Shown: positions 10,341 through 14,542 of the stretch, one piece after another
Layout of the letters: each line of letters begins with the position of its first letter
Numbering within the stretch: the stretch's first letter is position 1
Assembly: GCA_038061695.1 (NCBI GenBank)
Contig: JBBTYT010000006.1
Coordinates: 1-56,340, forward strand
From: Patescibacteria group bacterium
GTDB lineage: Bacteria; Patescibacteriota; Minisyncoccia; GWC2-36-17; M10-OD1-4
Length of the DNA: 56,340 nucleotides
Direction: 5' to 3'
Translations under genes and position numbers: made by a program
The notes under the pieces: generated by a model
Told to the model about the DNA's origin: nothing
The model's input: only the letters and a program-made list of their open reading frames with translations
Database searches by the model: none

Positions 10341-10435
10341 TTGATAGAATTACCTCTCTTTGGTATAATTGTTTTAAGTGGATGAGTTGTAATGTTGTGT
10401 CAACTATTGATATAGATTAAAAAAGGTGCTAAAAT
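10341..10435 (+). promoter_or_regulatory. Tandem sigma70 promoters upstream of the surface protein gene
   Basis: P1: TTGATA(10341)-N17-TATAAT(10364) with extended TG. P2: TTGATA(10407)-N17-TAAAAT(10430) with extended TG. Confidence 0.75.
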
Positions 10436-10439
10436 AATT

Positions 10440-10941
10440 CTAGAAACTTTATATTACTTTTTGTATTGTTTCTCTTTCTTATTTTAATTAAAAATATTTT
10501 AGGTTGCTCGTCGTTACTTTTTGGGCTATACTTTAATGTAGTTCAAAAAGTGACGGTTAGAGAGATTAAAGAGAGTTCGGTAAGAACATTGAAAACTTAA
10601 TACGAAATCCGTTCACTACAACCTCTTTTTGGTTGTTTAAATTAAAATTGTTAGGGAAATTAGAGCTTTCCAATAGGGAAGTGGCTATTTTCTGCAATTT
10701 CTGCATTTTTTGGCTTAGCGAGGCTAATTAGATTCTTGAGATTAAATAGTATGAATAAACAGAGTTAAGGTCGATCCTTGATTATTAAAAGGGGAACTCG
10801 ATTCTATATTCATGTTTGTATTGAGAGTATAATTTTAATCATTTAATATTTGCTTAATAATAATTCCTATAGGTAAGTAAGTCTATCTACTTTTATATTT
10901 ATATAGTGGCAGCTAGATTTGCGATTTAAGGATAATTAAAT
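10440..10941 (+). promoter_or_regulatory. Long structured 5' leader with a boxA-like site and the 5' arm of a long-range stem
   Basis: Hairpin CGTTACTTTTTGGGCTAT/GTAGTTCAAAAAGTGACG (~10511-10554); GAACATTGAAAACT at 10584; 10626-10700 complementary to 14425-14505; further hairpins at 10750-10815. Confidence 0.65.
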
Positions 10942-13900
10942 ATGAATTCATTATCAAGTGGAGCTAGCGAGAAATTCAAGCAATTTCTTGCGATAGCTTT
11001 AACTTTAGCAACAACTGTTGTTTTATCTGGTCTTGCGGCACTTGTGCCTGTAATATCAGCAAACGCAGCTGGTTTGCTAGAAGGCAGTCTTATCAAGTCT
11101 GCTGACGCACCGGCGGTTTACATTATAAATGACAAAGCGCACGGCACATATGCAGGATGGAAGAGACATATCTTCAATCCAGATGTCTTTAATATGTATG
11201 GTCACTTAAGCTGGGCTAACATTCAAACTGTTTCCCAAGCTACACTTGACTCATATCACACATCTGATCTTTATAGCGCAGATGGAGATCCAAAAGTTTA
11301 CTCTCTTGAAGAGATGGGAACATCAGCTGTTAAGCACCACGTTGAAAACGAGGCCGCTTTCTTAGCTAATGGATTTTCATGGGATCAAATCTTTCATGTA
11401 AATGAAAGAGAGAGAGATTACTATGCAACAGGTTCAATAATCACAGCTACAGTAGTGCCACCAGTAGTAACACCACCAGTAGTTACACCTCCAGTAGTTG
11501 GTTCAGGTTTATCAGTATCTCTAGCTTCAGATACAGCTAGTGCAAATACAATTCTTTCAGACGATACTGCAAATCAATATCCACAAGCTTTGATTCCTTT
11601 TACAAAAGTGAACTTTGCCGCTGGATCTGATGGAGATGTAAAGGTTACATCATTAAACTTTACAAGAACAGGTATTGCTTCAGATTCAGATCTTGGCAAT
11701 CTTTATCTATATGATGGAGATGTAAGATTAGCTGAATACACATCTTTTAATAGTAAAGTTCTAACATTCACAAATTCAGCAGGTCTTTTCACAGTAGCAA
11801 AAGGCACAACAAAGAGCGTTACTTTAAAGGGTGACTTAGCTAGAACTTCACCATCAGTTTCCGCTTCAAAGAATATCGGATTTGACCTAGTATCAGCTTC
11901 AAATGTAACAACAGATGGAGCATCAGTATCAGGATCATTCCCAGTATCAGGAAACAAAATGACAACAGCTCAAGTTACAGATCTTGGAACAGTTCATGTA
12001 GCTGGATCTTACGCAACAAACCCTGCTACAACAGTAAAGGGTGATGCTGTAAATCAAGAACTATGGAATTTCTCCTTAGTTTCAAGTAACCAAGATATGG
12101 AAGTAAGAAACTTGAAATTGACAATGATCGGAACAATCGCATCAACTAATATCAAGAATTTGAAATTAGAGGTTGGCGGAGTTCAGGTTGGAAGCGCAAT
12201 GGCTCTTGAAGCAGATAATTCTGTAACATTTAATCTTGCATCATCTCCTATCATGATTACTTCTGGACAGACAAAAGTTCTATCTTTAAAAGGTGATTTA
12301 ACAGGAGGAGCTTCAAGAACATTCTACTTCTCAATCCAGAGATCATCTGATCTTTCAGTATATGACGCTGGATACGGAGTATATGTAACACCAGCTAAAG
12401 ATGCCGCAACAACAGCGTTCGGTATTATTAAACCTACATCTTCTTCAACAGTTGATTCAGGATCTATGGTTGTTGGCGTAACAACAGATTCACCAACAGG
12501 TAATATCGCAGATGCCGCAACAGGTTTGACATTAGCTAAGTTCTCCTTCTATTCAGCAGGTGAAACAGCTAAGATTTCTGATTTAACAGTCGGTTGTACT
12601 TCAGCATCAAATGTATTAACTAATGTAAAACTTCTTCTTGACGGAAGCCAAATCGGCACAACAGATTCCTCAGTAACTTGTGGAACAGCAGAAAGCTTTA
12701 CATTTGGAAATACATTCCAAGTACCTGCTTCAGCAACAAAATACTTAACAGTAGTTGCTGATACAACAGATTCAACTGTTCTTGTAGGTGAAACAGTAGT
12801 TATTACACTTGCAGTTGGATCAAGTAATATTCAATTCCAAACAACATTAACATCAGCTAACACAACAGCTCAAACAGCTAGAACATTAACAGTTCAATCA
12901 GGAACAGCTTCAGTTGTTAAAAATGTTGCATTGGGTGATAAATCATCAACTAATCCAACAGGAACAGTTAATGCTACTGATGTTAAAATTGGATCATTCC
13001 TTATAACAGCAGGTTCCGGAGAAGCTATTAATGTAACACAAATTGCATTAGCAGATGTAACTTCAGGTACCGTTATGGGAACAGATTTCCAAAACTTGAA
13101 GATCAAGAACAGCACAGGAACACAGATTGGTTCAACTGTTACTTCACTTAACACAACAGCTGGAACATATACATTTACACCTTCCCCAGCTATAAATATA
13201 GCTGCAGGCCAGCAATATGTAGTAGATGTCTATGCTGATCTTAAATCTTCTGCTACAGAAGTTGATCATAATCCTGTAATGGCATTTGATAGCGTAACTG
13301 CAACAGGAGTAAGTACAAGCTCAGATGCAAGTTATACAACAAATGTTGATTTGCAAACAGCTTATGTTTCCGCAAATGGTAATTTGACTATTACTAAGGG
13401 AGCAGATACACCAATAGCTCAGCAAATAGTAATGGGATCAACAGAGGTATCATTGGCAACATTTAAGCTTGCCGCAGATGCGGCTGAGGCTATCTTAGTT
13501 TCTGATATTACAGTATCTGATACTGTATCATCAGCGGCAACAGGTACACTTAAGAACATCAAGCTTTTTGTAGATGGTCTTCAGATTGGACAGACAATTC
13601 AGCTTGACACAACAAGCGCTACATCAACTTATGCTCATGCTGTATTCTCAGGACTTTCCTTAACAGTTCCAAAAAATGGAAGTAAGCTTGTAACAGTAAA
13701 AGGTGATGTAACAACTTCAGATGATGGAGCAGTAACAGGTTCAACTCACTCATTTGCAATGCTTGCAAATAAGGGTTCAGCTGTTGAGTCAGTAACTGCT
13801 AAAGGTTCTTCATCAGGAGTATCTATAACAGGCGCATATCTTGACTACTCTTCATCACCAGATGTTGATCAGGTTGGAAATGCTATGACAGCATACGCAA

Positions 13901-14412
13901 CAAAACTTACAGTTGCTTACGCTACGGACTCTCCATCAGGAGTTGTTCTAGCTACAACAGCTGATCAGGTTATTGCGAAGATTAATGTAACAAACTCATC
14001 AAATATTGGTTCATACACAGCAACAATTAAGTCTATGAACTTTGCTATAAGCTCACTTGGAACTTCAAAACCTGCTGCGACAGCAAGAAACTTGAAAGTT
14101 TACAAAGATTCTGTAACAACATCTAATCTTGTTGCTACAACATCATGGGCTGCTGGAGAAAACCTTAACTATGGTGATACAAAGTTAACAAATGGAACAA
14201 GTTCAGCAACTAATTTCATTGATACTTCAATTGCTGCCGGCACAACTAAGACATTCTTAGTAACATTAGATACTAATGATGCAGACACAGCTAATGATTC
14301 AATCACAATTGGTATGGCTTCTGACGACTTAGCTTGGAGAGATAGCAAGGTAACAAGTGATATCTCAGCATCTGATTCATTGCCATTGTTAACTAAGAAT
14401 CTAACAAGATAA
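10942..14412 (+). CDS. Large secreted Ser/Thr-rich S-layer-like surface protein
   Basis: Signal peptide ending ANA-A, ~120-aa N-terminal module, PPVVT linker repeats, several beta-rich Ig-like repeats (...L..F...A.....V..L), strong ACA/TCA/GCT codon bias suggesting high expression. Confidence 0.75.
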   Translation: MNSLSSGASEKFKQFLAIALTLATTVVLSGLAALVPVISANAAGLLEGSLIKSADAPAVYIINDKAHGTYAGWKRHIFNPDVFNMYGHLSWANIQTVSQATLDSYHTSDLYSADGDPKVYSLEEMGTSAVKHHVENEAAFLANGFSWDQIFHVNERERDYYATGSIITATVVPPVVTPPVVTPPVVGSGLSVSLASDTASANTILSDDTANQYPQALIPFTKVNFAAGSDGDVKVTSLNFTRTGIASDSDLGNLYLYDGDVRLAEYTSFNSKVLTFTNSAGLFTVAKGTTKSVTLKGDLARTSPSVSASKNIGFDLVSASNVTTDGASVSGSFPVSGNKMTTAQVTDLGTVHVAGSYATNPATTVKGDAVNQELWNFSLVSSNQDMEVRNLKLTMIGTIASTNIKNLKLEVGGVQVGSAMALEADNSVTFNLASSPIMITSGQTKVLSLKGDLTGGASRTFYFSIQRSSDLSVYDAGYGVYVTPAKDAATTAFGIIKPTSSSTVDSGSMVVGVTTDSPTGNIADAATGLTLAKFSFYSAGETAKISDLTVGCTSASNVLTNVKLLLDGSQIGTTDSSVTCGTAESFTFGNTFQVPASATKYLTVVADTTDSTVLVGETVVITLAVGSSNIQFQTTLTSANTTAQTARTLTVQSGTASVVKNVALGDKSSTNPTGTVNATDVKIGSFLITAGSGEAINVTQIALADVTSGTVMGTDFQNLKIKNSTGTQIGSTVTSLNTTAGTYTFTPSPAINIAAGQQYVVDVYADLKSSATEVDHNPVMAFDSVTATGVSTSSDASYTTNVDLQTAYVSANGNLTITKGADTPIAQQIVMGSTEVSLATFKLAADAAEAILVSDITVSDTVSSAATGTLKNIKLFVDGLQIGQTIQLDTTSATSTYAHAVFSGLSLTVPKNGSKLVTVKGDVTTSDDGAVTGSTHSFAMLANKGSAVESVTAKGSSSGVSITGAYLDYSSSPDVDQVGNAMTAYATKLTVAYATDSPSGVVLATTADQVIAKINVTNSSNIGSYTATIKSMNFAISSLGTSKPAATARNLKVYKDSVTTSNLVATTSWAAGENLNYGDTKLTNGTSSATNFIDTSIAAGTTKTFLVTLDTNDADTANDSITIGMASDDLAWRDSKVTSDISASDSLPLLTKNLTR

Positions 14413-14508
14413 TCTTAGATCGGTAAATTAAAGTGAGTAATAACTTGGATTGGAAAGTTCGGTAACGAGCCTCTTGATAATTCATAGCAATTTATTCATC
14501 AAAAATTT

Positions 14509-14542
14509 CAAAAACACTCCGCCTTCGGGCGGGGTGTTTTTG
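14509..14542 (+). terminator. Intrinsic terminator of the surface protein gene
   Basis: CAAAAACACTCCGCC-TTCG-GGCGGGGTGTTTTTG. Confidence 0.9.

Follow-up and report, generated by a model that had tools for sequence, protein, structure and literature searches.

The gene considered here lies in a 56,340-nucleotide stretch of DNA from a groundwater bacterium of the Patescibacteria. This stretch, referred to as the window, is contig C6 of a genome (G000) of 692 kb in 22 contigs with 32.5% G+C. The coding sequence, called as an open reading frame (ORF) at positions 10942 to 14412 of the forward strand, encodes a secreted multi-domain surface protein of 1156 amino acids. It is preceded by two promoters, a boxA-like element and a 5' untranslated region (UTR) of about 500 to 570 nt, and it is followed by a short trailer and an intrinsic terminator. 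A first-pass annotation had likened this arrangement to a ribosomal RNA (rrn) operon, with tandem promoters, a boxA and a long-range stem between leader and trailer that encloses the whole gene. The reading favoured here, at a confidence moderately above even, is that Nus factors are recruited to a highly expressed surface-protein gene by the boxA in its 5' UTR, which is conserved, structured and about 500 nt long, and that there is no leader-trailer stem.

The comparisons draw on a set of 19 genomes at the level of the order. A strong ortholog of the surface-protein gene is found in 10 of the 19, and the leader is assembled in eight, which come from at least three families. G002 carries an ortholog from the same genus and G003 one from the same family, and these two together with G000 and G001 are the four family members used for the promoters. 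A protein query against metagenome and genome contigs added one usable close relative, identical to G002, and fragments at contig ends; in all, three genomes of the genus were available. Rfam 15 contains no family that matches the leader or the trailer; at the gathering threshold the whole window gave a single match, a tRNA elsewhere, and at E up to 5 the region 10250 to 14650 gave no leader or trailer match.

The boxA-like element, AAGAACATTGAAAACTTAATA, is located at 10582 to 10602 on the forward strand. The first-pass annotation had placed a boxA-like 14-mer at 10584, and GAACATTGAAAACT does begin at that position. The columns G..C.TTGAAAA.T.AA.A are invariant in all eight orthologous leaders and form the sole invariant block in the first 150 columns of an alignment in which the leaders are otherwise poorly alignable, apart from a few modules. 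The element lies about 150 nt after the second promoter and 353 nt before the ATG, and across the orthologs its distance from the start codon ranges from 215 to 461 nt. This position is promoter-proximal and resembles that in rrn operons and ahead of CRISPR arrays. Compared with the rrn consensus of B. subtilis, AUGAUCUUUGAAA, the element agrees in 10 of 13 positions. The B. subtilis sequence is bound by NusB and sits directly after a small hairpin, as described in the available part of PMC13753749.

It had been proposed that the 14-mer be compared with the rrn leaders of the same genome, and the comparison was made with those of relatives, where the same type of sequence is found. The 16S and 23S leaders of G001, G003, G005 and G014 have a boxA-type element that follows a hairpin and precedes the mature RNA by 58 to 166 nt. 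Sites of this kind are GAGAACTTTGATAATTAAATA in the 23S leader of G001, CCCATTGAAAAATAAATAG in the 23S leader of G014 and AAAGAACCTTAAAAAC in the 16S leader of G003. Variants of a lineage occur together, as G014 has CATTGAAAA.T.AATAG in both its 23S leader and its surface-gene leader. A weight matrix built from seven rRNA-leader sites of relatives alone places the site in the window first among 1,383,364 positions of its own genome, at 19.4 bits. With the same matrix a site in a CRISPR leader on contig C18 ranks third (15.5 bits), and the sites at ranks 2 and 4 are within ORFs or antisense to them. The motif is in the sense orientation in 8/8 surface-gene leaders, in 7/7 rRNA leaders and in the CRISPR leader. 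The surface-gene element is thus predicted, by sequence type, position downstream of a promoter and orientation, to be a boxA of the kind found in the rRNA leaders of this lineage, and its conservation extends across the order.

The simpler pattern AAGAWCWTTGAAAA is also more frequent than expected. It has three matches in the genome, against an average of 0.35 and at most 2 over 40 simulated genomes, and 11 matches in 21 genomes against one with a reversed control. The 11 matches comprise four surface-gene leaders, one CRISPR leader, two sites in dnaK coding sequence, two 5' UTRs of G007, one intergenic site near a contig end in G003 and one ambiguous site at a contig end in G000, beside an HlyD-like ORF. 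The last of these (on contig C5) was considered as a possible rrn leader and rejected; it directly follows the HlyD-like ORF, whose homolog in G002 continues as coding sequence. Two further observations concern the rRNA genes of the relatives. The 16S and 23S genes of G003 and G001 have separate leaders with a boxA each, and the 16S match in G003 (L022) and the 23S match in G001 (L031) span 1970 and 4538 nt, more than the length of the models, which points to insertions.

The CRISPR leader belongs to a Cas12a-type locus at G000:C18:13000-22000 (L046). It encodes, in order, a protein with RuvC_1 and REC1 domains, Cas4, Cas1 and Cas2, followed by the motif and then the array. The near-copy of the boxA, AAAGAACATTGAAAATTTAAT, is directly after cas2, about 185 nt before the first repeat, and has the same orientation as the repeats. 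The Cas proteins were assigned by a domain search, and the repeat is one that we take to be of the Cas12a type.

The first-pass annotation was also correct about the promoters. P1 (10341 to 10369, forward strand) has TTGATA and TATAAT separated by 17 nt and matches the consensus at 11 of 12 positions, and P2 (10407 to 10435, forward strand) has TTGATA and TAAAAT with the same spacing and matches at 10 of 12. Both have an extended -10 TG, and the start sites are predicted from these elements. The two promoters are 66 bp apart and are the best two of 16 sigma-70 sites between 9800 and 14800, the total of 16 being not above that in shuffled sequence (20.4, standard deviation (SD) 4.8). The -35, TG and -10 elements of both promoters are invariant in all four family members, with a variable spacer between the promoters, and in P2 CTATTGATATA and TG-N-TA(A/G)AA are kept in all four. 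Only a single obvious promoter is seen in each of the 16S leaders of G001 and G003, so the tandem arrangement is not a feature shared with the rrn genes of this lineage.

Upstream of P1, by about 145 nt, is the 11-mer AGTTATCCACA (10187 to 10197, forward strand), which consists of a perfect DnaA-box 9-mer plus AG and is the sole perfect TTATCCACA in the window. The 11-mer is present on the same strand in all eight orthologous loci (the window, L002, L003, L005, L006, L007, L009 and L010), 291 to 401 nt upstream of the boxA, and the DNA that flanks it is unconserved. It may be an operator of the surface-protein gene, used by DnaA or by another factor. A replication origin at this site was considered and rejected, as GC skew shows no switch and the window holds no excess of DnaA-like boxes (16 versus 16.8 expected).

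The octamer TARGGAAA is clustered in the intergenic DNA of the window (4056-4096, 6191-6260, 7070-7115, 9842-9880 and 35828-35874), with 22 copies against 11.7 expected and none of 100 shuffles reaching 22. One of these clusters is directly upstream of the surface-gene promoters, and in G018 the ortholog is preceded by an array of the octamer in reverse complement. CsrA was considered as a protein that might bind repeated GGA motifs and was set aside, as no CsrA gene was found.

The leader as a whole folds more stably than shuffled sequence (z -3.94, equalled by 0 of 100 shuffles), and the comparison of orthologs points to a conserved, structured and modular 5' UTR. Ahead of the boxA, in a boxB-like position, the minimum-energy fold has a hairpin of 20 bp (10511 to 10556). 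Hairpins are found at the same place in G001, G002 and G003, and the changes in the arms in G003 keep the pairing; at the level of the order this part aligns poorly. The region that follows the boxA (10626 to 10700) contains GGAAA/TTTCC hairpins and is locally paired in the minimum-energy fold, with a terminator-like hairpin at 10665 to 10682. It is the least conserved part of the leader, varying even within the family and lacking altogether in G008, G014 and G018. Further downstream is an element conserved in 8/8 orthologs (10761 to 10827) that consists of AGAGTY-RGGTCGRT, a variable hairpin, AACTYGAYTCYA and then TTGTATTGAGAG, for which Rfam has no match. GGTCG is invariant in all eight, and the inner hairpin has changed on both sides in three pairs; in G014 and G018, which have a long inner insert, MAFFT misaligns the 3' strand. 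The last module (10878 to 10941) has a hairpin with approximate limits, again from the minimum-energy fold, followed by TTTGCGA and the Shine-Dalgarno sequence AAGGA (10928 to 10932) before the ATG. The hairpin and TTTGCGA are kept in G000 to G003, and in G008 changes in the arms preserve the pairing. Upstream ORFs in the leader are limited to TTG-started frames of 22 to 46 codons with no obvious ribosome-binding sites. Taken together, these signals suggest that the locus is built for very high expression.

It is proposed that the boxA acts on the nascent RNA, where it would bind NusB and S10. With NusG and NusA, this pair would turn RNA polymerase into a complex of the rrn type that resists pauses and termination, and the complex would carry transcription across a long untranslated leader that is U-rich and hairpin-rich and through the 3.5-kb ORF. 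The genome has genes for NusB, NusG and NusA, the NusB match being cut by a contig end; S10 is assumed, since the search for Nus genes was confined to these three and did not extend to S10 or SuhB. Rho was not found in this lineage, and the complex would therefore act on pausing, on intrinsic termination and perhaps on how the RNA folds, instead of on Rho. The message is probably stabilised by its 5' hairpins, as happens in known S-layer mRNAs, and transcription would end at an ordinary strong intrinsic terminator (14519 to 14545).

The alternative that survives best, and one that is still unlikely, is that the motif is the site of some other RNA- or DNA-binding factor or a part of the leader structure, and that it is like the rRNA leaders only through an AT-rich composition common to both. 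The motif does consist largely of A and T, and G+C makes up just 32.5% of the genome; similar sequences occur by chance in coding DNA, and its assignment as a Nus site is argued from sequence; the rRNA-leader sites were themselves assigned as boxA by their position and their likeness to the B. subtilis consensus. Composition does not readily account for a first rank among all positions of the genome with a matrix made from rRNA leaders, or for invariance in 8/8 leaders amid flanks that are unconserved. The constant sense orientation in the surface-gene, rRNA and CRISPR leaders fits a signal read in RNA. In addition, boxA is known or reported in all three contexts, according to the available parts of PMC13753749 and PMC7862264.

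A second alternative accepts the boxA as a Nus site and gives it the opposite effect, that binding of NusB and S10 represses the gene in the manner of suhB and couples the surface protein to free S10 and ribosome synthesis. In gammaproteobacteria the boxA elements before suhB, rpsJ, prsA and a gene for a ParE-like toxin are mainly repressive, according to the parts of PMC5725501 and PMC12360218 that are available. In G007, boxA-like 14-mers adjoin the ribosome-binding sites of two small genes (G007:C4:9268, L034, and G007:C6:6206, L041), an arrangement that recalls suhB-type regulation. The known repressive elements are within about 50 nt of the start codon, as far as PMC5725501 describes them in its available part, and the distances at the surface-protein gene and its orthologs are several times longer. 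The last step of the suhB mechanism is termination by Rho, and the RNA-binding domain of Rho (Rho_RNA_bind) was not found in any of six genomes, the genome itself and five relatives. The position after the promoters and the preceding hairpin resemble rrn and CRISPR leaders instead. Given how far the boxA is from the start codon and that Rho was not found, repression of the suhB type is less likely than an effect on elongation, and its probability is put slightly below that of the foregoing alternative.

The remaining alternative is the one proposed in the first-pass annotation, that leader and trailer pair over 3.8 kb in a stem like that of rrn operons, and that cleavage by RNase III or end-joining then yields an exceptionally stable or a circular mRNA. 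The pairings it listed are indeed there, with seven helices and 50/50 standard pairs in the window, and the 5' arm (10626 to 10700) comes directly after the boxA, as in rrn operons. RNAduplex gives -39.4 kcal/mol for 10600-10720 against 14413-14518, which is reached by 8 of 500 shuffled trailers (mean -29.3, SD 4.35) and by 21 of 500 shuffled leaders, for a leader sub-window that was chosen after the match had been seen. When the whole 502-nt leader is used the best duplex is again -39.4 kcal/mol and the shuffled trailers have a mean of -39.2 (SD 3.5), with 92 of 200 equally good. Real intergenic windows of 121 nt from the same genome reach -39.4 kcal/mol in 9 of 600 cases (sampled from 1082), which is unremarkable given that each leader offers several windows. 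The cofolded minimum-energy structure retains the local folds.

The orthologs do not keep the stem. G002 retains 27 of the 50 pairs, with helix 2 deleted, helix 1 reduced to 4 of 8 pairs and the 12-bp helix 4 to 6 of 12. A lone double change from T-A to G-C in G002 preserves pairing, and it is in helix 1, which is otherwise destroyed. The best leader-trailer duplexes are within the range of shuffles in G002 (163 of 200), G003 (176 of 200), G001 (64 of 200), G008 (119 of 200) and G014 (99 of 200). The trailer is not conserved beyond G002 and is unrecognisable in G001 and G003, and the region of the 5' arm is absent in the three orthologs named above. As a positive control, the leader-trailer duplexes of the 23S genes gave z values of -5.26 in G001 and -9.74 in G003, with 0 of 150 shuffles reaching either, and that of the 16S gene of G014 gave -2.19. 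The rRNA stems that were detected beat their shuffles by 20 to 40 kcal/mol, and the surface gene by 0.

Both ends of the proposed stem also fold locally. The trailer measures 106 nt from the stop codon, against the 95 nt or so first estimated. The stop codon at 14412, the terminator and the local hairpin are all where the first-pass annotation had placed them. The proposed 3' arm (14425 to 14505) holds this hairpin, GTTCG-GTAA-CGAGC (14457 to 14470), which had been named as a possible competitor of the stem. It covaries, being GTCTA-GCAA-TGGAC in G002, where four of the five pairs have changed and all still pair, with a GNRA loop in both genomes. The terminator has a GC-rich stem, a TTCG loop and a T-run, and similar terminators follow the orthologs. 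A 10-mer shared by leader and trailer, AGTTCGGTAA, was also considered and dropped, as it is not kept in G002. Another hairpin, ACTTGGA...TCCAAGT (14622 to 14644), lies between the terminator and the next gene, which encodes a membrane protein with Wzy_C and TPR domains; hairpins of differing sequence are at the same place in G002, G014 and G005.

With a duplex energy inside the shuffled range, no conservation in orthologs and a trailer that folds by itself, the long-range stem is close to refuted and is given only a very small probability, and with it the processing of the message. The complementarity is chance matching in AT-rich sequence, to which the GGAAA/TTTCC motif repeated in the leader contributes. 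A conserved and covarying helix of the rrn kind that encloses the gene was not found, and there is no evidence for end-joining or circularisation of the message. Stems seen by eye over long distances in AT-rich intergenic DNA can amount to some 50 pairs by chance.

Several points weigh against the favoured reading, that Nus factors are recruited through a boxA in the leader and that there is no stem. The 16S and 23S genes of the genome itself are not assembled, and the comparison with rRNA leaders therefore comes from relatives. The rRNA sites in the matrix were chosen with a degenerate pattern written after the surface-gene motif had been seen, so that the ranking is partly circular; the pattern has exactly one match in each of the seven rRNA leaders. 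The 14-mer pattern is not specific, as the matches in dnaK coding sequence (2), near the ribosome-binding sites of G007 (2) and at a contig end (1) demonstrate, and at the level of the class a comparable boxA site is found in only two of six more distant orthologs. The classic target of boxA antitermination is removed if Rho is not there. No RNA run is among the public sequencing runs listed, and the start sites, the length of the UTR, the level of expression and the effect of Nus factors are all read from the DNA. As for the stem, the duplex of G005 is reached by only 1 of 200 shuffles; it was rejected as a homologous stem since it is at a non-homologous position and overlaps a conserved element that folds locally. 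The positive control was clear in only two of seven rRNA cases and four of the seven were undistinguished from shuffles, and so the duplex test can miss real stems. Finally, the S-layer identity of the protein has no family match behind it, and its structural matches are limited to generic Ig-like folds.

That the gene product is a secreted surface protein is well founded. It has a signal-like N-terminus, and an AlphaFold model made with six orthologs (mean pLDDT 65.5) begins with a hydrophobic helix, which is followed by an alpha/beta domain at about residues 45 to 165, a proline-rich linker and a chain of beta-sandwich domains. Pfam has no family above the cut-off for the protein, its neighbours in a protein atlas are clusters of hypothetical proteins only, and Foldseek with the model returned only generic multi-domain proteins of the Ig-like kind, at a TM score of about 0.1. 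A role of the protein in an S-layer is putative. The N-terminal alpha/beta domain (P0001, residues 40 to 170) is also found, again at the N-terminus, in several further large proteins of G000 and of its relatives, with copies at G000:C14:40069-40530, C6:34286-34579 and C13:4517-4903, and it may be a shared module for anchoring in the envelope. The G002 ortholog (L002, G002:C49:936-4356) is split over two frames, one with residues 1 to 1000 and the other with residues 1009 to 1155, which is either a frameshift or an assembly error.

A wider proposal can be made, and it is held as tentative, with its chances put somewhat short of even. A single boxA of the rrn type would mark the rRNA, a CRISPR array and the mRNA of a major envelope protein in an order where Rho was not found; the Nus complex would tie production of the envelope to that of ribosomes, and the DnaA-box-like site would add a tie to the replication cycle. 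Control by Nus factors and boxA is well studied in rRNA operons and phage lambda; only recently have a few genes of gammaproteobacteria, and CRISPR arrays, been added to its range. If the favoured reading is true, the boxA before the gene of a major surface protein would add a structural mRNA to the targets known so far. As the genome of this lineage is reduced and Rho was not detected in it, the case also bears on the role of boxA complexes where Rho is absent or dispensable, a matter raised for B. subtilis in the available part of PMC13753749. A defined and testable RNA element would also be gained for organisms that cannot yet be grown alone.

Among known systems, the S-layer genes provide one comparison. 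The slpA genes of Lactobacillaceae have tandem promoters P1 and P2 and a 5' UTR stem-loop that stabilises the message, as described in the available part of PMC10221546. The gene studied here likewise combines tandem promoters with a 5' UTR that is long and structured, its product is large and secreted, and the same stabilisation of the mRNA is predicted. Unlike slpA, its UTR is far longer, at about 500 nt, and contains a boxA, and the protein has no sequence relation to S-layer families. Processive antitermination systems of surface-polymer operons are another comparison, and LoaP and EAR belong to these. RfaH, which acts at ops, does the same for such operons (PMC12360218, from the part of that paper available). 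All share with the present locus a leader signal that secures full transcription of long envelope-related genes, and they differ in using a NusG paralog or an RNA element, whereas boxA with NusB and S10 is proposed here.

For boxA itself, Stringer et al. reportedly described the element upstream of CRISPR arrays in eLife in 2020. Such arrays have been reported in gammaproteobacteria and linked to Rho (PMC7862264 and PMC13753749, in their available parts). The array in this genome has the same motif about 185 nt upstream, and in both the array and the surface gene the boxA precedes a long untranslated stretch; it differs in being of type V, in a member of the Patescibacteria, where no Rho was found. 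The first-pass annotation regarded the mechanism as undescribed for a protein-coding gene. This is only partly right, as boxA-regulated protein genes (suhB, rpsJ, prsA and that of the ParE-like toxin) are known in gammaproteobacteria from the accessible part of PMC5725501; a search at the level of titles and abstracts, which did not cover the supplementary list of 407 putative boxA sites in that paper, found no paper that links boxA with S-layer genes. Like these genes, the surface-protein gene has its boxA in the 5' UTR of a coding sequence. In theirs the element is less than 50 nt from the start and represses through translation and Rho, and here it is 353 nt away in a gene that is presumably very highly expressed, so that neither the short distance nor the Rho-dependent termination of the suhB type is found.

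The closest comparison is with rrn antitermination by boxA, NusB, NusE (S10), NusA and NusG. A promoter-proximal boxA in the sense orientation, of the lineage's own rRNA type and with a hairpin before it, is common to both, as are the genes for Nus factors and a long untranslated RNA downstream of the boxA. Unlike an rrn operon, the product here is an mRNA, there is no processing stem between leader and trailer, and Rho was not found; binding of the Nus factors and antitermination are predicted. The case is a new target, in a new lineage, of a known mechanism, and not a new mechanism.

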